A stretch of DNA of 64,000 nucleotides, from the NCBI RefSeq assembly GCF_055900595.2, contig NZ_CM148325.1. One strand, written 5' to 3'. The notes under the pieces were generated by a model. That model was not told the DNA's origin. It ran no database searches and was given only the letters and a program-made list of their open reading frames with translations. This document shows positions 684 through 13,457 of this stretch, in pieces; the first letter of the stretch is position 1, and each line of letters opens with the position of its first letter. A program made the position numbers and the translations under genes.

Positions 684-943
684 GGTGTTACCCCTACAGC
701 TTCAAGGAATGTTCTGGCATCGCGAACCTGATAGGCTTTCGCTTCTTTTTCCGGGTGTGGACGATGAAATGAAGCCACAACCTGATTAATTTCAAACCTG
801 ACGCGGGAACCGTTTCCTTCCGTAGCAATAGCCCCCAAAGCAATAAATAAGGCTTCTATTTTTCGCCATTCCAGCGTGACAGGTGTTGGCGTAGAAAAAA
901 CAGCTTGTAAGGTTTTTTTATGTTTGGCGCTTAACGTATTCAT
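680..943 (-). CDS. hicA: HicA-family mRNA interferase toxin
   Basis: 87 aa. Pattern GNGSRVRF...HRPHPEKE...VR..RTFLEAVGV fits the HicA signature (GSH-x-F, HxP, KE, lysine/arginine-rich C-terminus). Immediately upstream of hicB. Confidence 0.7.
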   Translation of the reverse strand: MNTLSAKHKKTLQAVFSTPTPVTLEWRKIEALFIALGAIATEGNGSRVRFEINQVVASFHRPHPEKEAKAYQVRDARTFLEAVGVTP

Positions 944-992
944 ACAGGGTATTTTCCATAAGTTATTTTATTCTTCCGCCAAGATATAATGA

Positions 993-1013
993 TGATATCA
1001 TTTTTTGATATCA
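993..1013. promoter_or_regulatory. Putative hicAB operator: two copies of the palindrome TGATATCA
   Basis: TGATATCA at 993-1000 and 1006-1013, in the AT-rich region just upstream of the hicA start and downstream of the S stop. Confidence 0.45.
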
Positions 1014-1015
1014 TT

Positions 1016-1462
1016 TCAAGTCAGGAAGTGAACGATTAGCGCCTCTATCTTTCGCACATCCTCCGCCGAAACCCCCAGCAACTGCCTTTGTGCGTAATCC
1101 ACCTCCAACCCGTAGCGATTTACCCGATCGCGCAGGCCATACTGATGAACGGCGGCCATATGTCGAACGCTGCTGAGAAACGAAATGGTTACACCCTGCC
1201 CATCGCCTTTTCCTTTCATATAGCGTGCGGTACGCAGCTTACGGAACATCTGGCGGCGGATCTTTCCTTTTTTACTGCGTAGCTGGGGCTTACGGGGGGC
1301 GAACGATGAGCCGTCCGGGTTTTTCTGCGCGGCTATCCGCTGGCTTTGTGACTGGCGCAGGCTGCGGGCGATTTCCCGCGCCAGTTGGGTTCGGCTTGCC
1401 GGGGAGAGCTTTACGAGCAGGCCATCGGCCCAGCGGTGGAGTTGTTGCAGGTCTTCGCTCAT
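1016..1462 (-). CDS. Tail completion / virion morphogenesis protein (gpS-like)
   Basis: 148 aa, about the size of P2 gpS, in the expected position after R. Confidence 0.7.
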   Translation of the reverse strand: MSEDLQQLHRWADGLLVKLSPASRTQLAREIARSLRQSQSQRIAAQKNPDGSSFAPRKPQLRSKKGKIRRQMFRKLRTARYMKGKGDGQGVTISFLSSVRHMAAVHQYGLRDRVNRYGLEVDYAQRQLLGVSAEDVRKIEALIVHFLT

Positions 1463-1920
1463 CAGGTGCTCACAATCGTTTCACCGCGACAGGCGATTTC
1501 CCAGCCGTTGTAACCGCTTTCTGGCTGCTGGTCGTTACAGTGCTTTGCTTCCAGACCACCGTCGCGCTGGCGAACAATGACGCGCTCGGTCAGCGCCAGT
1601 TTGATGCTGATATCGTAGCTTTGATGGTCGATGGCTTCGGCCTCAAACTGAAACGCCTGCTCGCGCAGGTCGCTATTGGCGAAGGCTTCCTGCTGGTGAA
1701 GCGACATCCAGCCGACCAGTAGCACCATCAGCGTATCGGGATCGGCGGCGTAGTCGGTGATCAACAGTTCCAGCGTGTACTGGTATTCAAAACTGGTGCT
1801 GCGCCCTGCGGTGGCGACGATCCGGCCCTTATTGATAAAGATCCGCAGCGCGTCCGGGTTCTGCTGTAGATGCGGGACGCTGGCGGCCAGCAGTTCACGG
1901 ATGAGCTGCGCTTTGTGCAT
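1462..1920 (-). CDS. Tail completion protein (gpR-like)
   Basis: 152 aa, in the expected position between the lysis genes and S; start/stop overlap with S. Confidence 0.7.
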   Translation of the reverse strand: MHKAQLIRELLAASVPHLQQNPDALRIFINKGRIVATAGRSTSFEYQYTLELLITDYAADPDTLMVLLVGWMSLHQQEAFANSDLREQAFQFEAEAIDHQSYDISIKLALTERVIVRQRDGGLEAKHCNDQQPESGYNGWEIACRGETIVST

Positions 1921-2170
1921 CGATACGCTCCTGACAGCTAATCGTCATATCCACCTGCGCAGCGCACTGGTGCCACGCGTTTTCAGTGTCCAGCAGTGCG
2001 CGGCTTAAATCTTCATTACTCTGCGGTTGCAGCGCCGGAAGCTGGCAGGGCCTCAGTTTCGGGCAATTGACGGTAAGCCGCACTGCCGGTAATGGTGGTG
2101 TGCTGGTGCAGGCGGATAATATCAGCGGGCAAAGCAGTATCAGCCCATTCACGAAGCTGTTGATTTTCAC
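1895..2170 (-). CDS. o-spanin (Rz1/LysC-like outer-membrane lipoprotein), starting inside the i-spanin gene in another frame
   Basis: 91 aa with signal peptide and lipobox (LILLCPLILSAC-TS). Starts within the 2016-2465 ORF and runs past its end into R. Confidence 0.6.
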   Translation of the reverse strand: MKINSFVNGLILLCPLILSACTSTPPLPAVRLTVNCPKLRPCQLPALQPQSNEDLSRALLDTENAWHQCAAQVDMTISCQERIDAQSAAHP

Positions 2171-2465
2171 GTTTCAGTTTCTCCAGTTGCTGATTGCGCT
2201 GCCGTAGCTGGTCATGGGCGGCGGCGGTTTGCTGTTGCAGCGTCAGGTATGCCTGCTGGTCGGCGTCGGCCTGTTGCTGGAGTTCGTCCAGTTCCCGCAC
2301 TTTTGTCATCAGGGATTCGGTCAGGCTGGCAATCTGAGTGTCGGCCAGCCTGATGTGCTGCTGCTGTTCAATAAGCTGTTCCTGCTGCGTCATACGCTGC
2401 CAGTTAGTCCAGAGCAGCATCACACCGAGCAACAGCAGCGGCGCGGCTTTCATCCAGCCCATCAT
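2016..2465 (-). CDS. i-spanin (Rz/LysB-like)
   Basis: 149 aa. N-terminal TM segment, then a Q/E-rich coiled-coil-like region. Overlaps the endolysin stop. Confidence 0.65.
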   Translation of the reverse strand: MMGWMKAAPLLLLGVMLLWTNWQRMTQQEQLIEQQQHIRLADTQIASLTESLMTKVRELDELQQQADADQQAYLTLQQQTAAAHDQLRQRNQQLEKLKRENQQLREWADTALPADIIRLHQHTTITGSAAYRQLPETEALPASGAATAE

Positions 2466-3052
2466 GCTGCCGCCTTACTGAATTTTTCGAAGGCGACCGC
2501 CAGCTTAGTATCGTACTGGTTGCGTTTGTACTGTGGCCCGTTGTAGCGGCGGGCGAACTCTGGCCAGTTCTGTACCTTCATCGCGTCGTGGATCTTCGAA
2601 TTGGCCTCAACAAAGCGCACGAAGGTATCAAGCTGCATCTGCTCGCTGTCGTTCATCTGTTTTTCAAAGTCGGCAGCAGAGGTGTAGCCCAGCGTTTTCC
2701 AGTGAAAGCCCATAATCTGGAACAGTCCCCAGCTTGCGCTCTCAATGGCGGCGGCGCTGTGGATCTGTTTCGCCAGATTCAGACGGTAGTGCTCACGGCT
2801 TCCGCCCTGATAGCCGCCTGCGCTCTTGTTCACCAGATCCGGGTAATTCTGCGCCAGCCGGTCGGCGTCCAGTCCGTGGCTTTTTAACTGGCGGTACATG
2901 ACGTGGCGTTCAAACAGAATAGCTGGGCGGCCATCGGGCAAGAAGCCGTGAGATCGGGCTTCAACCTCCTGCACTGCCTGTAATGTCGCCAGCGGGATGC
3001 CCAGATACAGCGCGGCGGCCTGCTGCTGATCATGAGTGAGTGTACGAGTCAT
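2462..3052 (-). CDS. Endolysin, N-acetylmuramidase family (DUF3380-type)
   Basis: 196 aa containing the GLFQIMGFHW motif typical of this muramidase family. Lies in the lysis cassette. Confidence 0.7.
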   Translation of the reverse strand: MTRTLTHDQQQAAALYLGIPLATLQAVQEVEARSHGFLPDGRPAILFERHVMYRQLKSHGLDADRLAQNYPDLVNKSAGGYQGGSREHYRLNLAKQIHSAAAIESASWGLFQIMGFHWKTLGYTSAADFEKQMNDSEQMQLDTFVRFVEANSKIHDAMKVQNWPEFARRYNGPQYKRNQYDTKLAVAFEKFSKAAA

Positions 3053-3344
3053 GGCGTGGCTCCTTCGGGTGGTGACGTAAGGGTTTAATCAGGCTGGCGA
3101 CGTTGCCGCGTGCGGCAGTCAGGCAAATCAGCAGCACGATGTTGATGGCGGTTTCGGCGATAAACACGTAGCGGTACAGGCTGAAACAAATCAGTACCGC
3201 CACTGATGCGGTGCAGCACATCAGCAGCCACGCCAGCCAGCTATACAGCGGGCGATAGGTAGTACCGTGAACGCGGCGATAGAGGAACAGACGGATGGTA
3301 ATCAGCAGGCAAATAATGGCGTTAAGGCTCAGGATTAGTTTCAT
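3030..3344 (-). CDS. Small membrane protein of the lysis cassette (holin/antiholin-like)
   Basis: 104 aa, strongly hydrophobic with about 3 predicted TM segments. ATGA overlap with the upstream holin-like gene. Confidence 0.5.
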   Translation of the reverse strand: MKLILSLNAIICLLITIRLFLYRRVHGTTYRPLYSWLAWLLMCCTASVAVLICFSLYRYVFIAETAINIVLLICLTAARGNVASLIKPLRHHPKEPRHDSYTHS

Positions 3345-3718
3345 TTGCGTCCCCTTAAAAAGTCGAGCAGTTGACCGGGGTTATCCAGTTGTCGGATGGC
3401 CCATAGCAGCGCCTTGACGGTAAGCGCCGATGAGAGCAGCGCCCCGATACCGGGGGAGACTTTTTCCGTCAGATGTTGCGGCAGATATCCGGCGACCAGT
3501 GCAGTGAACAGGTCGGCGGTCAGCAGGCCGATCACAAACGCCACGCAGAAGAAAATGATGCGCAGGAACAGGCCGATCTCTTTTTGCGAAATCACCAGCA
3601 GCAGCGCGCCACACAATGCGCCGAGCACCACCGGAGCCTGTAGCGTCGGGAACAGCGTGGCAATGGAGAATGCGCTTACGGAAGCGGCGACGACGGTGCC
3701 GGTTACGGGTTCGTTCAT
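3341..3718 (-). CDS. Holin-like membrane protein
   Basis: About 125 aa taking the ATG at 3718 (MNEPVTG...); the track's longer form needs a GTG start. Multiple TM helices. Located directly after X. Confidence 0.55.
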   Translation of the reverse strand: MNEPVTGTVVAASVSAFSIATLFPTLQAPVVLGALCGALLLVISQKEIGLFLRIIFFCVAFVIGLLTADLFTALVAGYLPQHLTEKVSPGIGALLSSALTVKALLWAIRQLDNPGQLLDFLRGRK

Positions 3719-3720
3719 AG

Positions 3721-3924
3721 TCAGTCCCACAGGTTGATTCGTTGACGTTCGGCGGCGGGAGCCTGTTCAGGTACGTTCACCGCCGTACCGTGCGGCAGGC
3801 GCAGCGGCAGTTCGCATAGGCGCGGGTTGTCGCGGTAAAGCCGTTCGACAATCCCGGCAGTGCGCCCGAAGGTGCGCCAGCAGAGCTGGTCGAGCGTTTC
3901 GTTTTGCAGGCTATAGACAATCAT
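3721..3924 (-). CDS. Tail protein X (gpX-like)
   Basis: 67 aa, the same length as P2 gpX. Sequence MIVYSLQNETLDQLCWRTFGRT.... Confidence 0.7.
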   Translation of the reverse strand: MIVYSLQNETLDQLCWRTFGRTAGIVERLYRDNPRLCELPLRLPHGTAVNVPEQAPAAERQRINLWD

Positions 3925-4038
3925 GGTGTTTCCCGCGCGGCGTCAGGTGATGCGGGGATGGTGGCACAGGGGCGGGAAGTGAAGGGAAGGCTTCCGCTTG
4001 TAACTGAGGACAGTACAAGCGGAAGCGATTGGCGAGGG

Positions 4039-4359
4039 CTATGCCTCGTCGCTGTCGGTATTGATGATTTTCAGTTCAGCGGACTTCTGGAGCTGGATCA
4101 GCGCCGGGATCAGAAGCGCGGTAGCCGACAGGCCGTGCCCTAACTGGCACAGGCTTTCAGCGGAGAATTCCAGCACGTTGCTGTCGGCAAAGGAGACGAA
4201 GGTTTTACCCAGAAAATGCAGGCCGTGACATAGCCCGGCATAGCACTCTTCGCTGCTGTTGGCCAGTTGCAGAGTATCGTCGGCGTTCAGGTGTGAAATA
4301 TCCAGCTTGCGGATCGCGTCCGCCAGTTCAGAGGACAGAATATTGGTTTCAGGCACCAT
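4039..4359 (-). CDS. Hypothetical protein, 106 aa, acidic C-terminus
   Basis: Strong SD (GGAGGT, 5-nt spacer) before the ATG at 4359. No family recognised by eye. Last of three small genes in the L-X island. Confidence 0.55.
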   Translation of the reverse strand: MVPETNILSSELADAIRKLDISHLNADDTLQLANSSEECYAGLCHGLHFLGKTFVSFADSNVLEFSAESLCQLGHGLSATALLIPALIQLQKSAELKIINTDSDEA

Positions 4360-4525
4360 GGCGCACCTCCAGCGGTTTGCAGGAGACGAACACCAGCGGG
4401 AAACCCGCCAGCAGGCCGCGAGCCTCTGTCTCTGTTGTCGCCAGTACGGATACCAGACGCAGTGGCTGGATCTCGCGCAGCAGGCGGTTGGAACGGGCGT
4501 TCAGGAAGGTGTAGAGCTTAGGCAT
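4352..4525 (-). CDS. Hypothetical small protein, 57 aa (not in ORF track because <60 aa)
   Basis: Hand translation: MPKLYTFLNARSNRLLREIQPLRLVSVLATTETEARGLLAGFPLVFVSCKPLEVRHGA. SD GGAGGT 4 nt before the ATG at 4525. Overlaps both neighbours by 8 nt. Confidence 0.5.
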
Positions 4526-4694
4526 GGTTCACCTCCTCTACCGGGGTGCTACGTGGGGGATTGAACGACTGAGCGATAACGCTCAGTGCCTGCTTACCTT
4601 CGGGATGCGCAAGACGGTAGTAAGTTAACAGGACTTGCTCCTGTGGGCTGAGATCGTCCCACGTGAGAGTTGTGTTACTATTAGCGGTAGCCAT
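4518..4694 (-). CDS. Hypothetical small protein, 58 aa
   Basis: ATG at 4694 preceded by GAGGT (MATANSNTTLTWDDLSPQEQVLLTYYRLAHPEGK...). The track's longer form starts at 4757 without a good SD. Confidence 0.5.
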   Translation of the reverse strand: MATANSNTTLTWDDLSPQEQVLLTYYRLAHPEGKQALSVIAQSFNPPRSTPVEEVNHA

Positions 4695-4836
4695 AGCATT
4701 ACCTCGATTAATGTTGTGGTTAGATGCCTTGGCAGTGTTCGCGCACTGTCGGGGCATTGTTATTTATGTCATGTGATAGTAATGTGTCATCACACAGTAC
4801 TACATTAACCTGAGTGTGATTTAGGTGTCAATACAC
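4695..4836. promoter_or_regulatory. AT-rich divergent promoter/operator region between the two island operons
   Basis: Inverted repeat TGTGAT...ATCACA (tgtcatgtgatagtaatgtgtcatcacacag) and further GTGTGA copies between the start codons at 4694 (-) and 4837 (+). Confidence 0.45.
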
Positions 4837-5004
4837 ATGAATGAAAGAAGAGGAAATCCTCCGTTTCAGTTTCGACTCGATCCTGAACTGAGAAACGCGA
4901 TGGAAGAAGCTAAAAAGCAAGATGGTGATGAATCACTGGCTGCGTGGATTAAGCGAATTATCAGAAAAGAGCTTCAGTCACGGGGTATAGAACCAAAAGA
5001 TTAG
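4837..5004 (+). CDS. Arc/MetJ-type ribbon-helix-helix DNA-binding protein, 55 aa
   Basis: Hand translation: MNERRGNPPFQFRLDPELRNAMEEAKKQDGDESLAAWIKRIIRKELQSRGIEPKD, matching the RHH pattern F-x-L-R-L-x-x-E-L...SLN/A.I..RL. First gene of the + operon. Confidence 0.55.
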   Translation: MNERRGNPPFQFRLDPELRNAMEEAKKQDGDESLAAWIKRIIRKELQSRGIEPKD

Positions 5005-5050
5005 CAGATAGGTATATACTTTGAATAAAGAGTATTAGAGGTAAAAAATA

Positions 5051-5239
5051 ATGGCGAAGAATAGCAGTCCTGCCAGCCGATACGGTATCAAGGTCGTAAA
5101 AAGAGACAGTATGAGCGGGCAGTTTGTACCCGTCGAAATGAAGCTGGACGGCCCGGAAGGTGAGCGTGTGATTAAAAAGTCGGCAGAGCGTATTTATGCC
5201 AGACACAACAAAGTCATTAAGGCGCTGGCTAACCGATGA
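5051..5239 (+). CDS. Putative antitoxin partner of the Doc toxin (family not recognised; not Phd/YefM-like)
   Basis: 62 aa. SD AGAGGT upstream. Stop overlaps the Doc start (ATGA at 5236-5239), a typical toxin-antitoxin coupling. Confidence 0.5.
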   Translation: MAKNSSPASRYGIKVVKRDSMSGQFVPVEMKLDGPEGERVIKKSAERIYARHNKVIKALANR

Positions 5240-5613
5240 TTGATGCACATTTGGTGATTGGAATTCACGACTTTATTCTTGCTCATGAGCCGGGATTGGT
5301 TGGTTATCAGGATGCTGGCCGGGTCGAGGCAACACTGGCACGGGTGGATAACCGTATTCTGTATGAGCAGATGAATGATATTTTCCAGATCGCCGCATCT
5401 TATGCGGTTGCCATCGCCAGAGGGCACGTTTTTGCTGATGCCAACAAGCGAACGGCACTGGTGACGGCGTTGACATACCTTGATATGCAGGGTGTGAACC
5501 TCAAGCGAACACAAAAGCTGGAAGATATTATGGTGGATGTGGCTGAGGGAACGCTAAATCTGGATGATTTAGCCGATATTTTCTATACCCTTAGTGATGT
5601 AAATGCTTCCTGA
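5236..5613 (+). CDS. doc: Doc (death-on-curing) family toxin, Fic fold
   Basis: 125 aa. Conserved Doc motif HVFADANKRTA (HxFx[DN][AG]NKR). Size and layout parallel P1 Doc. Confidence 0.8.
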   Translation: MIDAHLVIGIHDFILAHEPGLVGYQDAGRVEATLARVDNRILYEQMNDIFQIAASYAVAIARGHVFADANKRTALVTALTYLDMQGVNLKRTQKLEDIMVDVAEGTLNLDDLADIFYTLSDVNAS

Positions 5614-5618
5614 CGTTA

Positions 5619-5643
5619 CAGCCCGACAGATCGGGCTGTTTTT
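5619..5643. terminator. Bidirectional hairpin terminator between the convergent Doc gene and the 78-aa gene
   Basis: cagcccga-caga-tcgggctg followed by TTTTT on + strand; A-run on the other side. Confidence 0.6.
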
Positions 5644-5645
5644 AA

Positions 5646-5882
5646 TTATGCCGCCTCAATACCCGCGTTGGTTAACATATAGTGGCCCCAGTGGTTTTTT
5701 TTCAGGTAACCGGCCAGTTCCATCTGCGTCACAATAAATTCAGCGTTAACCATTTCTATACCTGCGTAGTCGGCCAGATCGCGCAGCGGCCATGTGCTGC
5801 GAACGCCGACGCTAACTATGGTGTCTCTGATGCGGCGAGCGGTATCGGTCATTGGGCGGGTTCTGGCTGCCTGAATAGTCAT
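5646..5882 (-). CDS. Hypothetical protein, 78 aa, possible winged-helix DNA-binding protein
   Basis: ATG at 5882 with SD AGGGGA. Sequence ...LRDLADYAGIEMVNAEFIVTQMELAGYLKK... Lies directly after L on the late strand. Confidence 0.45.
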   Translation of the reverse strand: MTIQAARTRPMTDTARRIRDTIVSVGVRSTWPLRDLADYAGIEMVNAEFIVTQMELAGYLKKNHWGHYMLTNAGIEAA

Positions 5883-5998
5883 GGTATTTTCCCCTGTAGA
5901 TTCTTTCTGTTAGGTCAGACACTAACTCTGGTGGGGAAGGGGCATCCAGCGTTCAGATGAGGCGATACGGTGATGCGCATCGCATATCCGTACTCTTT

Positions 5999-6466
5999 TT
6001 ATACCAGAACAAACGTACTGCGCGGCTTGCCCAGAATATCCCGCACGGCGAAGCGGGCATCGCGCGCCAGATCGTCGGCGGTGCTTTCCTTCTGTTCCGC
6101 CAGTTTGCTGCCGTGGGCGGTGGCATCAAAGTTACGGTAGCGTTCCAGCAGGTTTGCGTGCGTCAGGCTGTACACCGCGTAGCGGTAGCGGTGCAGGTTA
6201 ACGCTTTCGCCGTCCAGCCGTTCGGTAGTAGTTTCCACAATGCCGGTTGTGCCACGGCTTTCCTGCTCCAGCCGCCATTCCCGCAGGTCGTCGTTCACGC
6301 TGGCCAGCGCAATCAGCAGCGCCTCGCGCAGCCGTTCGTTGGTGATGGTGCTGTCCAGCCGTTGGGTTGCACGCAGATGTTGCGTATCGATATTGGGAAA
6401 GAAAGGGTGGTTGCTGATAACCAGCCCCGGCAGACTGGCGGCGGGGGCAACCTGAATAAAGCTCAT
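5999..6466 (-). CDS. Head completion/stabilisation protein (gpL-like)
   Basis: 155 aa from the ATG at 6466 (MSFIQVAPAASLPG...) with SD GGAGA. Position after small terminase M. The track's longer form begins at an upstream alternative start. Confidence 0.7.
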   Translation of the reverse strand: MSFIQVAPAASLPGLVISNHPFFPNIDTQHLRATQRLDSTITNERLREALLIALASVNDDLREWRLEQESRGTTGIVETTTERLDGESVNLHRYRYAVYSLTHANLLERYRNFDATAHGSKLAEQKESTADDLARDARFAVRDILGKPRSTFVLV

Positions 6467-6551
6467 TATATTCTCCCTGTTCGGCGGTGGACGGCGGGCG
6501 TTGCAGTGGTAAAACCACGCGCGGCCAGCCGTGCCGCCGGTCGTGAGGGTC

Positions 6552-7205
6552 TCACTCGGTAGGCTGACTGTTGCGAATTTGTCGCTCCAGTTGCTCAATC
6601 AGCTTTTTCACGCCGACGTTCTCATCCAGTTGTAGCGCGCGCTGGAACTGCGCCAGCGCCTCCTGCGGCTGGCTTTCGCTGTGTGCCAGCCCCAATGCCT
6701 TGTGCAGGCGAGCGCGAACCTGATCCGGCATGTCCTGATCGGCTAACAGCCCGGCAAAGGCCAGCAGGCTGTCCAGCGCCGCAAAGGTACCGGCGGTAAG
6801 CTGTTTCAGGGTGGTGTCGGCGACCTCTTCAGCCACCATGCAGGCGGTCTGCCGCTGGTACTGATCCGGCGTTACCCAGCCGTGTTTCAGGGCGTGTTCC
6901 GCCATGGGGTAGGCAGCGGGAAAGTCGCCGGTATCCAGCGTCCAGAGCAGCACCGTCATAAACACATCGTCCTGCTGTTGGCTGTCGGCAGCCAGAACGC
7001 CGCTTACCCATGGCTGGTAATCGGGCAGCAGTTCACCCTTAACCTCGATTTTGCGTTCAATGGACTGGATCGCTTTCAGGCGGCGTTTATCGGTTGCCAG
7101 CTTTGCCAGCATCAGTTCATAGCCGCTGGCGTAGGTCTGATTTTCCTGTTGATTTGCGGCCTGCGCCTGATAGCGCAGCAGGTGGCGGCGGGCAGGCGTC
7201 ATCAT
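6552..7205 (-). CDS. Terminase small/endonuclease subunit (gpM-like)
   Basis: 217 aa, in the P2 late-operon position between N and L. Confidence 0.65.
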   Translation of the reverse strand: MMTPARRHLLRYQAQAANQQENQTYASGYELMLAKLATDKRRLKAIQSIERKIEVKGELLPDYQPWVSGVLAADSQQQDDVFMTVLLWTLDTGDFPAAYPMAEHALKHGWVTPDQYQRQTACMVAEEVADTTLKQLTAGTFAALDSLLAFAGLLADQDMPDQVRARLHKALGLAHSESQPQEALAQFQRALQLDENVGVKKLIEQLERQIRNSQPTE

Positions 7206-8221
7206 GCGTCTTTATCCTCAAACTTGATGTTTTCAAACAGGCAACCGCAGCCGAAGTCTTCCACCACAAAGGCATCGTTGGAAGACTCGAAGTTCTCTAC
7301 CCGGTCACGTTTGGGGTTATCAATAATGGCGCGGCGGCGGGTGCCTTTCTGGACATAGATAGACAGGTTACTGAAGGCGGTGACCAGAATGGTGTTGTGC
7401 GGGAAACCCGGCACGCGCACGGCAGGGCGACTGCCGATGGTTTTCTGGCTGACCAGAATCTGCCCCGCCAGTTTTTCGCTGTTCTCATTGTGCTGGTTGA
7501 GGATCGGGAAGTATTTGTCGTGCAGGACGCCACGGCCACAAATGGCGACCAGATCTGCGCCGTCGACATGCCATTCGTCAATCAGGTTTTCTTCGCCGTC
7601 ATTGACCATGGCGTCCAGATTCTCATAGTCGCCGCCTTTGCCAATGATGATTTTGCCGGAACCTTCCACACCTTCGTTCATGACGCGTTCCGGGGCGTGA
7701 TCGCGATACTGCTGCAGCCAGCCTTTGTTAACGTCCTGCAGAAGGGGGTAACGCTGGAAGTCGGTCTGGGCTGCAACGAGGATACCGTTGAAGCCAATCA
7801 GGATGCGGTCTAATCCCTGTCGCCGGGTGATGCTGTCGCGCACGCGGATCTGAAAATCTGGGTGGGCGGCCCATGCGTCCAGTTTGGCGTATTTCAGCGC
7901 GGTATCGTAGTTGGTTTTTTCGCAGCGGTAGCGGTTAGTCGTCATTGACGTGGGGTCGACGGGTTCACGTTCACGCTGACTGGTATCGGTACGACTGGCC
8001 GTGGGGCGATCAATGCCGATACCGACTTTTTCACCTTCCTGATCCACCACTTCATGGACGTTGATTTCGGTCAGGAATTCTACGGACGCCTGAATTTTGG
8101 TTTCCAGCGTCTGCTGTACGGAAGGTTCTACCGTGAATTCGACGGCGGCGCTCTGGACACCGGACAGCCCGGCGACGGTTTCAACGTAAGCGTTGTATTT
8201 TAAGCGGGTTTCGTTACGCAT
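7202..8221 (-). CDS. Major capsid protein (gpN-like, P2 family)
   Basis: 339 aa, close to P2 gpN in size, in the position after scaffold O. Confidence 0.75.
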   Translation of the reverse strand: MRNETRLKYNAYVETVAGLSGVQSAAVEFTVEPSVQQTLETKIQASVEFLTEINVHEVVDQEGEKVGIGIDRPTASRTDTSQREREPVDPTSMTTNRYRCEKTNYDTALKYAKLDAWAAHPDFQIRVRDSITRRQGLDRILIGFNGILVAAQTDFQRYPLLQDVNKGWLQQYRDHAPERVMNEGVEGSGKIIIGKGGDYENLDAMVNDGEENLIDEWHVDGADLVAICGRGVLHDKYFPILNQHNENSEKLAGQILVSQKTIGSRPAVRVPGFPHNTILVTAFSNLSIYVQKGTRRRAIIDNPKRDRVENFESSNDAFVVEDFGCGCLFENIKFEDKDA

Positions 8222-8231
8222 CGGGGGTTCC

Positions 8232-9059
8232 TTAACAGTCGGTTTTCAGGTCGGTGTTGCCACCGGTGGCAGGCTGGCGCGGCGGTGTGGCCGGTTGTTT
8301 TGCAAGCTGAGTTTTCAGCGTGGAATAATCGGTCTGTAGCTGCTGATGCTGCGTTTGCAGCTCAGACAGCTCAGCGCGAATTTGGTCGACCTGTTCGCTA
8401 CAGAACGTCGCTACTTCCTCCACCGCCAGATGCACGTCGTCCCGTTGCTGGTCGTCGTGGTTCTGCTTTTTACTTAACAGCGCCTTGATGCGGGTAAACA
8501 GAGATTCGCCGCTGCTTTCCTCCACTTCTTCAAACTCCAGTTCAATCTCTTCTGCCACGCTGAAAATGTTCTCCGGCGAGCGTTTACGCGCCGCCAGCGG
8601 GTTGCTTTGCGCGCTGGCGCAGAAGGAGAGCATTTCGGTGCCGAGGCTGGCCGGATCGTCGGTGACCGCCAGCCCGACCAGATAGGCTTTGCCCGTGTCG
8701 GCAAATTTCGGATTGACTTCCACCGAGGTATAAACCTTCTGCCCTTTGCGGTTCATTTCGACCAGCGAATCCGTTGGGGCCAGACGCGCCAGCAGCGCCA
8801 GTTTGCCTTTCAGGGGACCGTCTTCGGCGATCTCTTCTTTCTTCACCATCGCCACGTCGCCGTAGCGCTGGAACGGGCCGTCCGGCAGGATGCCTTTCAG
8901 GTGCTCCAGATTAATGCGCGCGCCGTACACTTTTGGGCTGTATGTATCGGCCATTTGCTCGATCCACTGGCGTTCAATCGTGCGCTTGTCGCAGGTTGCG
9001 CCTTCTACGGCGATACGCACCCATTTAGAGAGCAGTTTTTTCTTTGGCTTTTTGTCCAT
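8232..9059 (-). CDS. Capsid scaffolding protein (gpO-like)
   Basis: 275 aa with an acidic/coiled-coil C-terminal half. First gene of the O-N-M-L operon, divergent from the terminase. Confidence 0.75.
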   Translation of the reverse strand: MDKKPKKKLLSKWVRIAVEGATCDKRTIERQWIEQMADTYSPKVYGARINLEHLKGILPDGPFQRYGDVAMVKKEEIAEDGPLKGKLALLARLAPTDSLVEMNRKGQKVYTSVEVNPKFADTGKAYLVGLAVTDDPASLGTEMLSFCASAQSNPLAARKRSPENIFSVAEEIELEFEEVEESSGESLFTRIKALLSKKQNHDDQQRDDVHLAVEEVATFCSEQVDQIRAELSELQTQHQQLQTDYSTLKTQLAKQPATPPRQPATGGNTDLKTDC

Positions 9060-9214
9060 AACGTTCAGTCCCGGCGTTGGCTAAATAAGCGAATGGTCGG
9101 GTAGTCCTCCGCTATCAGGCAACGGGCTTCGCTTGTAATCATCCGGGTTACAAGCGGCATTGCTACGCGCAGACAGCGGCTTGTTTACGCTGACGGCAGA
9201 AACGAGAGGACGTT
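9060..9214. promoter_or_regulatory. Divergent late promoter region (P-type and O-type promoters)
   Basis: 155-bp intergenic gap between the divergent terminase (+) and scaffold (-) genes, as in P2, where Ogr-activated late promoters sit. Confidence 0.4.
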
Positions 9215-10999: not shown

Positions 11000-11976
11000 A
11001 TAACTCAATGGCTTTCACCTTCGGTGAACCTGAAGCCCTGCTGGACAGGCGGGAAATACTGAACTATCTGGAGTGCGTGGACTTTGGCAAATGGTATGCG
11101 CCGCCGGTGGATTTTAATTCGCTGGCGCTGTCGTTCCGCGCTTCGGCGCATCATACCAGCCCGATCTGCGTGAAGCGCAACGTGCTGGTTGGTACCTTCA
11201 TACCTCATCCGTTGTTGACCCGGCAGGCGTTCAGCCGCCTTGCGCTGGACTATCTGGTATTCGGCAATGCCTATCTGGAGCGGCAGGATAACCGGCTGGG
11301 CCAGCCGTTAACGCTGGTGCCTGCGCTGGCGAAGTATGTCCGGCGCGGCAAGGCGCTGGACAGCTATTTCTTTGTTCAGCCCGGTAAAGTGGATCATGAG
11401 TTTGCGTCGGGCAGTATCGGCCACCTGCTGGAGCCGGATATCAATCAGGAAATCTACGGCCTGTCGGAATACCTCTCTGCGCTGAACGCGGCATGGCTGG
11501 ATAACTCCGCCACGCTGTTTCGCCGTCGTTACTACAAGAACGGCAGTCATGCCGGTTTCATCCTCTACCTGAGCGACCCGGCCCACAACGAGGCGGATAT
11601 TGGGGCGTTACAGGAAGCGCTAGCGAACAGCCGTGGCCCCGGCAACTTCCGCAATCTGCTGATGTATCTGCCGAACGGCAAGCCAGACAGCGTAAAGGTT
11701 ATCCCGATTGGCGAGGTGGCGGCGAAAGATAACTTCTCCGATATCAAGAGTGTCAGCCGTGACGACCAGTTAGCTGCGCACCGGGTACCACCTGCGCTCA
11801 TGGGCGTGGTACCGAGTAACGCCGGTGGCTTTGGTGATGCCATCAAAGCGGCGAAGGTATTCAACTGCAATGAGATCGAGCCGCTACAGGAACGGTTCAA
11901 GGAGCTGAACGACTGGCTGGGGCTGGAGGTTATTCGCTTCAAAAAGTACCGCCTTGCCGACGACGATTCAGAGTAA
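10996..11976 (+). CDS. Portal vertex protein (gpQ-like)
   Basis: 326 aa, translationally coupled to the terminase (ATGA overlap); position as in P2 Q. Confidence 0.65.
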   Translation: MNNSMAFTFGEPEALLDRREILNYLECVDFGKWYAPPVDFNSLALSFRASAHHTSPICVKRNVLVGTFIPHPLLTRQAFSRLALDYLVFGNAYLERQDNRLGQPLTLVPALAKYVRRGKALDSYFFVQPGKVDHEFASGSIGHLLEPDINQEIYGLSEYLSALNAAWLDNSATLFRRRYYKNGSHAGFILYLSDPAHNEADIGALQEALANSRGPGNFRNLLMYLPNGKPDSVKVIPIGEVAAKDNFSDIKSVSRDDQLAAHRVPPALMGVVPSNAGGFGDAIKAAKVFNCNEIEPLQERFKELNDWLGLEVIRFKKYRLADDDSE

Positions 11977-12021
11977 CCCCACCAACGACCAGCTCACTAT
12001 CAGAGCCACCATGCGCCATTC

Positions 12022-12046
12022 AGCCCGCTTCCTGCGGGCTTTTTTA
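12022..12046 (+). terminator. Rho-independent terminator after the portal gene
   Basis: agcccgc-ttcct-gcgggct followed by TTTTTT. Confidence 0.65.
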
Positions 12047-12295
12047 CGCCTTCTCACCGCCAGAATCCCCGGTCAGCACCGCCAGCGCGCGGTTGTGACC
12101 CCGCCACGCCTGCGCAGTAAATAGATCGCTTTTTTTGCACTGGTGCGTAAGCGTCGGAGCGGGCCATAACGGGAGGGCGTGGTCGGGTTGCAGTTGCAGC
12201 AGAATCATGCGGATTTATACGCCCTGTGTATGCGCCAGAGACGATCGGGAGGGCAATGCCACGATCCTTTCGGTATTTTTGGATCGCCTGTCGGG

Positions 12296-12581
12296 AAAAG
12301 GTAACCTCAGTAATTAGCAGTAAAAATAATGCTTATTCTATTGTTTATAAAAGAGAAATTTGGTTACCCCTAAAAGGTAATCTGAGGTAACCCAAAAGGT
12401 AACCTGTTTTATATTTTCATATAAATCATGATGTTACAAATTAGAAGACATCACTATTATAAAAGGTAACCTGATTACGCTTTGGTTACCAAAAGATTAC
12501 CTTTCTCTGTTTTTGAAAAATCCTTTTTATTCATTAAGTTATTTTGATTTTTCGTTGCAGGTTACTAAGGTTACCTTTTTC
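12296..12581. repeat. Array of about 9-10 copies of (A)AAAGGTAAYC in both orientations; candidate protein-binding sites
   Basis: Direct copies near 12296, 12372, 12385, 12394, 12461; inverted copies near 12362, 12484, 12497, 12560, 12570. AT-rich; no ORF of 60 aa or more. Confidence 0.6.
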
Positions 12582-12850
12582 CGAAGTCCCCACGGACTTT
12601 GGTATATATAGATAGGTTAAAAAGTAGCCGTTATGTTTGCCAGCTATTTACTTCCCATTCTTCCACTGGCCAGCATGTTAATATGCCCGGTAATGATAAC
12701 TAGTTGCCATTGGGTTACTTTCTTCTGTGGACGGTAAAACTGACGGTAAATTGGGTTGTGGGTCTCGATTTAGATTAGTAAAATCAAGTGATTAAGTCGA
12801 CTGTAGATAATCGAGTGGGAATGATTTGATCCCTGCACTATGAATTAGCA

Positions 12851-12880
12851 AAACCCTCTGTTACTACAGAGGGTTTTTTA
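12851..12880 (-). terminator. Hairpin terminator downstream of yfgI (bidirectional shape)
   Basis: aaaccctctg-ttacta-cagagggttt flanked by T/A runs. Confidence 0.6.
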
Positions 12881-12917
12881 TACTCACGAATCATAGGATT
12901 GAAGTTACTGACATCGC

Positions 12918-13457
12918 TTAGTTAAACCAGCTGTCCGATTTGTTTTCTTCTGCTTTGCCCACGCTTTTCATCAGATCGCGACCGCCTTCAGTCATATTCC
13001 TGTTTGCGTCAGCTTCAGATTGCACCACATCGGTTTGCGCAGCTTTGTGCTTCAGTTCCTGATCGATAAATTCGTTTTCTCGCTTAACGCGGGCTTCTTC
13101 TTTCGCCAGCGCCAGTTTTTGTTTCTGAATCTCTAAGCTGCGTAGCTCATCTTCATAACTTTGATCGCGTTTCTTGTCCGCAGTGGCTTCGGCGTCCAGT
13201 TTATCCTGACGAGCTTTCTTATTCGCCGCTGCCGTTGCCGCTCTTTTATTAGCCGCGGCCTGGGCGTTTGCGCGACGTTGCTTCTCTTGCTGGATTTCCC
13301 TGTTGCGCTCCGCGACCCATTCGTCATGCTGCCTTTGCTCTTCGTTTTTACCTTGCTGTTCCGCTTCTGCGACAGCAGAGAGTTGATCCTGCAATGATGA
13401 GGCGATAGCCGGATAGCTTAAGGAGGCTAAGATGGCGCAAAGAAAAACTTTCTTCAT
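12918..13457 (-). CDS. yfgI: YfgI, secreted protein of unknown function
   Basis: 179 aa with signal peptide (MKKVFLCAILASLSYPAIA); K/E/A-rich. Recognised as E. coli yfgI by sequence and neighbourhood. Confidence 0.85.
   Translation of the reverse strand: MKKVFLCAILASLSYPAIASSLQDQLSAVAEAEQQGKNEEQRQHDEWVAERNREIQQEKQRRANAQAAANKRAATAAANKKARQDKLDAEATADKKRDQSYEDELRSLEIQKQKLALAKEEARVKRENEFIDQELKHKAAQTDVVQSEADANRNMTEGGRDLMKSVGKAEENKSDSWFN

Follow-up and report, generated by a model that had tools for sequence, protein, structure and literature searches.

Organisation of the lysis region

The stretch of DNA analysed here, 64 kb of contig NZ_CM148325.1 of RefSeq assembly GCF_055900595.2 (below, the window, in whose positions all genes and coordinates are given), contains the late-gene part of an Escherichia coli prophage, which its sequence assigns to the P2 family (Peduoviridae), in a lineage distant from P2 itself. 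The lysis cassette of this prophage is located in a block running from gene X to gene S, with every gene on the minus strand. The block begins with X (3721–3924), encoding a tail or baseplate protein (PF05489, E 9e-17), which is followed by the gene of HolA (3341–3718), a 125-aa membrane protein and putative antiholin or holin partner; HolB (3030–3344), a 104-aa class-I-like holin with three predicted transmembrane (TM) segments; the endolysin (2462–3052), a single-domain DUF3380 N-acetylmuramidase of 196 aa; LysB (2016–2465), an Rz-like i-spanin of 149 aa; and LysC (1895–2170), an Rz1-like lipoprotein o-spanin of 91 aa, counting from GTG 2170. The genes of two tail completion proteins, R (1462–1920; PF06891, E 6e-44) and S (1016–1462; PF05069, E 3e-36), complete the block, S being the last gene. 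The family E-values of the open reading frames (ORFs), ranging from 1e-14 to 1e-64, are well past chance. All the ORFs listed in a preliminary description of this DNA, made from the sequence alone, are present at their coordinates on the minus strand, and the order that it proposed (a holin-like protein, a second membrane protein, an N-acetylmuramidase, an i-spanin and an o-spanin) is borne out by family matches above the curated cut-offs.

Start and stop codons overlap as ATGA both between the HolA and HolB genes and between the endolysin gene and lysB, and the HolB and endolysin genes share 23 nt; Shine-Dalgarno sequences are found upstream of HolB, the endolysin gene, lysB, lysC and R. The cassette genes are thus predicted to be translationally coupled. 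All cassette ORFs are intact in the E. coli, Edwardsiella and Serratia relatives of the prophage.

Membrane proteins HolA and HolB

HolA (phrog_198) clearly belongs to the family PF16931 (Phage_holin_8; 72.7 bits, with a cut-off of 26.4), which is matched by KL3 gp35 and epsilon15 gp23 as well. It is nearer to the version found in phages KS5 and AP3 (45% identity to AP3 gp13) than to that of phage KL3 (33% identity to gp35). The hydropathy profile of HolA contains three strong hydrophobic segments and a weaker one, and the protein has a charged tail. An in-frame GTG at 3730 would extend the gene to 3341–3730 and the protein to 129 aa, and this was the ORF end used in the preliminary description; the ATG at 3718 is the likelier start, since it is located 2 nt past the stop codon of X, is the RefSeq start in E. 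coli strain L725 and yields a 125-aa protein found in exactly this form on ~372 public contigs. The idea of a dual-start motif comprising GTG 3730 and ATG 3718 was considered and found to be unsupported, as the four-residue extension carries no charge.

HolB (phrog_217) matches PF05449 (Phage_holin_3_7) with 71.7 bits, the cut-off being 25.4; according to hydropathy, its TM segments comprise residues 3–21, 36–54 and 60–78, and its C-terminal tail is basic. Homologues of HolB carry a holin annotation in phages epsilon15, SPN1S, phiV10 and KL3. A word-indexed protein search with HolB returned nine close relatives only, which inform about the host range and include no characterised homologue.

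The pair of PF16931 and PF05449 genes, in the same order and directly upstream of an endolysin gene, is also present in epsilon15, BUCT554, SPN1S and phiV10 (Uetakevirus), although these epsilon15-like podoviruses possess a GH19 endolysin, embedded spanins of another family and an unrelated virion type. Since the endolysin behind the pair is of the GH19 type in epsilon15 and BUCT554, this distribution marks the two genes as a putative functional unit that travels together, and they may encode a two-component holin shared by myoviruses and podoviruses. From the family names and the topology, we infer that HolB is the holin and HolA its antiholin or partner. Literature searches by Pfam name found no functional studies on the two families, and the antiholin role of a PF16931-type protein is a predicted one only (PMC3091744).

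Endolysin

The endolysin matches PF11860 with 216 bits (cut-off 22.3) over profile positions 2–174 of 175 and contains the motif WGLFQIMGFHW at residues 108–118, so that its recognition in the preliminary description as an N-acetylmuramidase-type enzyme with a GLFQIMG motif was correct; the protein was assigned to phrog_1224/2860. Over its entire length, it can be aligned with the catalytic domain of AP3gp15 (Protein Data Bank code 5NM7; E 1e-59, 53% identity), where E31 corresponds to Glu101 of AP3gp15 and H117 to His187. AP3gp15 has been identified as a lysozyme by mass spectrometry of muropeptides, and its Glu101Ala variant loses 99.4% of the activity (PMC5674055). Most likely, the window enzyme is likewise a muramidase, predicted to cleave the MurNAc-GlcNAc bond. 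Unlike AP3gp15, which has a cell-wall-binding domain, it consists of the DUF3380 catalytic domain alone, with no PG_binding_1 domain, no signal sequence and no signal-anchor-release (SAR) domain.

The most hydrophobic 19-residue segment of the endolysin has a mean Kyte-Doolittle (KD) value of 1.19 and a Hessa sum of +8.7 kcal/mol, compared with ~2.1 and ~+0.5 to +0.8 for the SAR controls P21 R and P1 Lyz. A SAR endolysin had been considered because of the uncharged residues 12–27 (AAALYLGIPLATLQAV) and was ruled out by this difference in hydropathy. As its N-terminus is not hydrophobic, the endolysin should need a holin that forms large holes.

Spanins LysB and LysC

LysB scores 98.8 bits against the equivalog TIGR03495 (cut-off 92.75) and belongs to phrog_89, as does P2 LysB, with which it shares 33% identity (E 4e-11). 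Its residues 7–22 (AAPLLLLGVMLLWTNW) are hydrophobic, the best 19-aa hydropathy window reaching a KD value of only 1.58. LysC matches NF038368 (P2_Rz1) with 97.1 bits and PF23793 with 54.5 bits, both cut-offs being 27; it is 41% identical to P2 LysC over 88 aa (E 9e-21), and both proteins fall into phrog 456/952. By these matches, LysB and LysC are assigned to the P2 LysB and LysC families as homologues of the P2 spanins.

The lysC frame is the +1 frame of lysB; the two genes have 155 nt in common, and lysC continues for 121 nt beyond the lysB stop codon, ending exactly 26 nt inside R. The signal of LysC, as read by eye, comprises 20 residues (MKINSFVNGLILLCPLILSA|C) and ends in the lipobox L-S-A-C, where Cys21 is followed by Thr, a residue that allows sorting to the outer membrane. 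The out-of-frame lipoprotein o-spanin claimed earlier is therefore present; its designation as embedded does not hold, because the frame leaves that of lysB and extends past its end, which corresponds to the overlapped type. A survey by Kongari et al. (2018) gives P2 as the type example of overlapped spanins, a class comprising 228 of the 528 two-component spanins (PMC6139136). The running of the o-spanin gene into R had also been named as a difference from P2; P2 lysC (8202–8492), located in the +1 frame of lysB as well, itself ends 38 nt inside R (R start 8455), with 146 nt shared with lysB and 145 nt beyond it.

A GGAG sequence is found ten nt upstream of GTG 2170, and the signal has the same length as those of P2 and KL3 LysC, with the alignments beginning at residue 1. 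Both overlapping frames are open in a relative with 96% identity. The exact 91-aa LysC was not found in a collection of 15 billion proteins; because of this absence, and since GTG 2170 gives a 20-residue signal like those of P2 and KL3, lysC has probably been mis-started or missed in public annotation. The RefSeq lysC of strain L725 encodes 76 aa from a CTG start (codon 16; 2123–2170 in the window), leaving only five residues before the lipobox Cys. No counterpart of an attenuator hairpin like that of P2 lysC was revealed: region 1905–2030 (minus strand) folds no better than shuffled sequences (z −0.37, versus −2.2 for P2).

Comparison with phage P2

The annotated gene order of P2 is X, Y, K, lysA, lysB, lysC, R, S, in agreement with the order Y, K, lysA, lysB, lysC given in the preliminary description, and in both P2 and the window the cassette is placed between X and R. 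BLASTP searches found nothing below E = 1 for HolA against P2 Y and LysA, for HolB against P2 Y or for the endolysin against P2 K; the hhalign probabilities were 0.5% (HolA and Y), 0.6% (HolA and LysA) and 0.1% (HolB and Y), values obtained with small and shallow family profiles (Neff ~2.4) that could let very remote kinship escape. The family assignments differ too. P2 Y is a member of PF04550 (phrog_175), whereas the window holin belongs to PF05449; P2 K (phrog_90) is of the lambda R type, with matches to the lambda lysozyme structures 1AM7 and 3D3D (E 4e-44 to 5e-44), unlike the DUF3380 muramidase; and P2 lysA (phrog_162) follows K, while the unrelated HolA gene stands before that of the holin. 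The claim that the cassette is unlike that of P2 is accordingly right for HolA, HolB and the endolysin, and wrong for LysB and LysC; the alignment proposed as a check yielded nothing for the first three proteins and the above-mentioned 33% and 41% identity for the spanins.

Similarity to the cassettes of Burkholderia phages

Searches using tblastn with the endolysin and HolA led to P2-like phages of Burkholderia and Ralstonia. Phages KL3, Menos and AP3 share the order X, PF16931, PF05449, DUF3380 endolysin, spanins, R, S, and the module type is found in Menos/Momento alongside KL3 and KS14. The spanins of KL3 and Menos are P2-type, with lysC in the +1 frame and ending inside R, as in the window, whereas AP3 possesses embedded, lambda-like spanins unrelated to the window LysB and LysC. 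These findings are in line with the work of Lynch et al. (2010), in which this gene order was reported for KS14 and KL3, the holins, antiholins and endolysins were found to be unlike those of P2, and the LysBC of KS14 and KL3 to be P2-like, ending in R (PMC3091744). The lysis proteins of the window share 55% (endolysin), 46% (LysC), 31% (LysB), 33% (HolA) and 32% (HolB) identity with those of KL3, and the backbone proteins 55% (X), 47% (L), 47% (M), 39% (R) and 43% (S).

The two systems differ in several respects. KL3-type phages have Burkholderia hosts, while the host of the window prophage is E. coli; the Burkholderia endolysins, which are the nearest phage homologues of the window enzyme, contain an additional N-terminal PG_binding_1 domain and comprise 266–269 aa, compared with its 196 aa; and genes L and X, which abut in KL3, have a cargo island and a promoter-like dyad between them in the window. 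A further P2-like phage, Smp131 of Stenotrophomonas, encodes two class-I-holin-like proteins with three TM segments between X and the endolysin, but its endolysin is of the GH19 type and no promoter before X was reported (PMC3931495). The P2-like phage ST79, with an M15A peptidase, represents one more variant of the cassette.

Distribution and origin of the cassette

The structural proteins of the prophage share 42% (L), 46% (X), 38% (R) and 39% (S) identity with those of P2. Its major capsid protein is nearest to those of Burkholderia P2-like phages (57–58%), with none above 60% in the phage collection searched, and a megablast search with region 1000–4400 found no match among 50,697 phage records. 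The head and tail genes have the same GC content as the cassette (56–60%), and the GC profile contains no compositional break at the cassette; two nearby insertions have 44–50%, about 10 points lower. Among 5,426 complete E. coli genomes, the lysis region is present at 94–96% identity in three, and the same three contain the head module at 97%; there is no genome among the 5,426 in which this head module is accompanied by a lysis module of another type.

HolA, HolB, the endolysin and LysB occur in exactly this form on ~375 public contigs, under the names "putative holin", "phage holin family protein", "N-acetylmuramidase family protein" and "Rz-like lysis system protein LysB", respectively, and RefSeq annotates the entire cassette in strain L725. 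Relatives with at least 75% identity are found in Salmonella enterica, Citrobacter freundii, Serratia symbiotica and Edwardsiella, and in the Salmonella and Edwardsiella relatives the cassette is intact at 75–83% protein identity. Previously known from phages of Burkholderia and Ralstonia, the KL3-type cassette thus extends to the Enterobacterales, where it is carried by a rare prophage lineage of the P2 family with members in E. coli, Salmonella, Citrobacter, Edwardsiella and Serratia; the collection searched contains no isolate that reaches 60% capsid identity to this lineage.

It was suggested in the preliminary description that the lysis module had been exchanged in this phage lineage. The data do not support this suggestion: the backbone is equally far from P2, the GC content matches, the head and lysis modules occur together, and the synteny is that of the Burkholderia phages; there is no evidence of a recent exchange. 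Relative to P2, the non-homologous replacement is real but ancient, deep in the Peduoviridae. Because of the synteny with KL3, the Burkholderia affinity of the nearest capsids and a GC content equal to that of the backbone, the cassette looks to have been inherited together with the backbone of a non-Peduovirus lineage rather than swapped into a P2 lineage.

Putative late promoters

A single operon under P_O comprises genes O through S in P2, and the late promoters of this phage contain a TGT-N12-ACA dyad, centred near −55, to which Ogr binds (PMC3931495). The perfect pattern TTGT-N13-ACAA occurs at exactly three sites in the 64 kb, versus 1.3 expected, and all three are located in the 12-kb prophage part, in intergenic positions upstream of late blocks. 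The dyad at 3998–4018 (TTGTAACTGAGGACAGTACAA, with arms extending to CTTCCGCTTGTA and TACAAGCGGAAG) is a putative site of an Ogr-type activator upstream of X; 84 nt separate its centre from the X ATG. The dyad at 9133–9153, in the divergent O/P gap, is at the same distance of 84 nt from the O ATG and 72 nt from P, and these two dyads have common arms CGCTTGTA...TACAAGCGG. The centre of the third, at 287–307, precedes the V ATG by 56 nt, and the P_V dyad of P2 is located ~56–57 nt before the annotated V start.

Dyads at matching distances from X and V were found in L725 and in the Edwardsiella relative, and in S. symbiotica for X only, where the chance expectation in the relatives' loci is 0.07–0.17 sites. 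In an alignment of the region upstream of X of these relatives, the arms and a downstream segment (CTGTGCCACCATCCCCG) are invariant, and the spacer of the dyad is variable. Altogether, the motif is conserved in four relatives. A scan of 800–6800 for promoter and terminator consensus sequences gave nothing useful on the minus strand. The gene of an Ogr-type activator of this prophage would be located outside the window. Late promoters of Smp131 were also predicted from TGT-N12-ACA dyads (PMC3931495).

Since the dyads precede late blocks, and their position and arms are conserved in relatives, it is reasonably likely that the block from X to S has an Ogr-type late promoter of its own, unlike the single O-to-S operon of P2. 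About evenly balanced is a broader proposal, according to which the long O operon of P2 would be split here, with X–S under an activator-dependent promoter of its own with a 12-bp-armed dyad, the L–X and S–V gaps would serve as landing sites for toxin-antitoxin or abortive-infection cargo, and the PF16931 and PF05449 proteins might form a two-component holin.

Proposed mode of lysis and alternative explanations

Taken together, the gene anatomy, family assignments, homologies, synteny and composition very probably describe a lysis module of the KL3/KS14 type (PF16931, PF05449, DUF3380 and P2-type LysB/LysC) that would work by the canonical three-step pathway, with X–S probably transcribed from their own late promoter. 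The lysis genes would be co-transcribed with X, R and S from the Ogr-type promoter upstream of X, and the soluble muramidase would build up in the cytoplasm. At a programmed time, HolB would open large holes in the inner membrane, with HolA tuning the timing as an antiholin or holin partner; the muramidase would then reach the wall and hydrolyse the MurNAc-GlcNAc bond by means of a single catalytic Glu (E31), and a complex of LysB in the inner membrane and LysC, an outer-membrane lipoprotein, would disrupt the outer membrane. Several points weigh against this interpretation. The topology of the membrane proteins was taken from crude hydropathy windows, and we know of no member of a PF16931/PF05449 pair that has been genetically tested. 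The endolysin has Asn151 in place of Asp221 of AP3gp15, the proposed substrate-positioning residue; the window holds only part of the prophage; and its dyads, TGT-N13-ACA, are one base off the published P2 pattern TGT-N12-ACA (PMC3931495).

Within the membrane protein pair, an arrangement in which HolA is the hole-former and HolB the regulator, or in which both make up an obligate two-component holin, is a possible, if less favoured, alternative. Both proteins of phage Mana are annotated as 'holin or antiholin class I', and the PF16931 member of Menos as 'antiholin/holin protein'; the pair is kept as a unit across unrelated phages, HolA too has a charged tail and three to four hydrophobic segments, and two class-I-like proteins precede the endolysin in Smp131 (PMC3931495). 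At the same time, the class-I profile of HolB is the cleaner one, with three strong TM segments and a basic C-terminus, and PF05449 proteins are usually annotated as holins beside an endolysin gene, which argues for HolB as the hole-former. A combination of a pinholin with a SAR endolysin, where the enzyme would be Sec-exported and tethered by its N-terminus and the membrane proteins would only depolarise the membrane, is scarcely credible: residues 12–27 of the endolysin indeed lack the charges present in the corresponding helices of AP3gp15 and Pae87, but their counterparts in the catalytic domain are helices alpha4 and alpha5, which end at the catalytic Glu, and the KD and Hessa values are distant from those of P21 R and P1 Lyz.

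Concerning the origin of the cassette, a recent replacement of the lysis module of a P2 lineage by a foreign one is unlikely and, as a recent event, appears largely refuted. It would agree with such a swap that the two membrane proteins and the endolysin are unrelated to P2 Y, LysA and K, and in P2-like genomes no part is known to be less conserved than the lysis module (PMC3931495; PMC3091744); however, the spanins and the architecture are those of P2, the structural proteins encoded on either side show an equal distance from P2 (38–46%), the nearest phages by capsid contain the same cassette, its GC content is that of the backbone and not that of the insertions nearby, and no complete E. coli genome pairs this head module with a different lysis module. 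Even less probable is a decaying remnant devoid of function. The window covers a part of the prophage, and the S. symbiotica copy is degraded, with capsid and S truncated, yet all seven genes are intact here, the overlaps and Shine-Dalgarno sequences are preserved, the lysB and lysC frames are both open in the 96%-identical relative, and the cassette has stayed intact at the protein divergence seen in Salmonella and Edwardsiella.

For lysis biology as such, the consequences are small, as the cassette type, the fold and chemistry of the endolysin and the overlapped LysB/LysC have been published, and the NCBI pipeline names the exact proteins. As an E. coli phage enzyme that naturally comprises only the DUF3380 domain, the muramidase might be of interest for enzybiotic work, and the likely separate late promoter with two cargo slots may interest those mapping hotspots of defence and toxin-antitoxin genes in P2-like prophages.

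Cargo slots and prophage boundary

Genes X and L are direct neighbours in P2 and KL3; in the window they are separated by ~2 kb of cargo (3925–5998) with small ORFs on both strands. These ORFs include a Fic/Doc-family protein (5236–5613, plus strand) with a 62-aa ORF ahead of it; a terminator-like hairpin is located at 5618–5639, and the core of this cargo (4500–5700) has a low GC content of 44–50%. The same slot is occupied by RelE/ParE together with a helix-turn-helix (HTH) protein in L725 and by both sets in S. symbiotica, and it is only a 109-nt gap in Edwardsiella. The gap between S and V (292–1043) contains a HicA/HicB toxin-antitoxin pair (680–943 and 348–683, respectively; GC 45–49%). 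At this place, L725 encodes an 'abortive phage resistance protein', the Edwardsiella relative RelE and an HTH protein, KL3 and Menos a DNA methylase, and P2 has orf30; the S–V gap, too, looks like a variable cargo slot.

In a P2 lysogen, the early region and int are expected beyond Q. Here, the portal gene Q ends at 11976, the host gene yfgI is located at 12918–13457, and the prophage ends within the interval 11977–12917, ~0.9 kb past Q and beside yfgI; the junction is the same in L725, and E. coli chromosomes match the right-hand 24 kb of the window with 100% identity. Neither an integrase gene nor early genes were found in the 64-kb window, and no tRNA gene was found there. The attachment site of this lineage appears, from the position of this junction, to be close to the cos/Q end.

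The copy in S. symbiotica (CP050855.1, 2236885–2247262) has decayed, with the capsid protein truncated to 126 aa, S truncated to 118 aa and O and P missing; the whole lysis cassette and the dyad upstream of X are intact in it.

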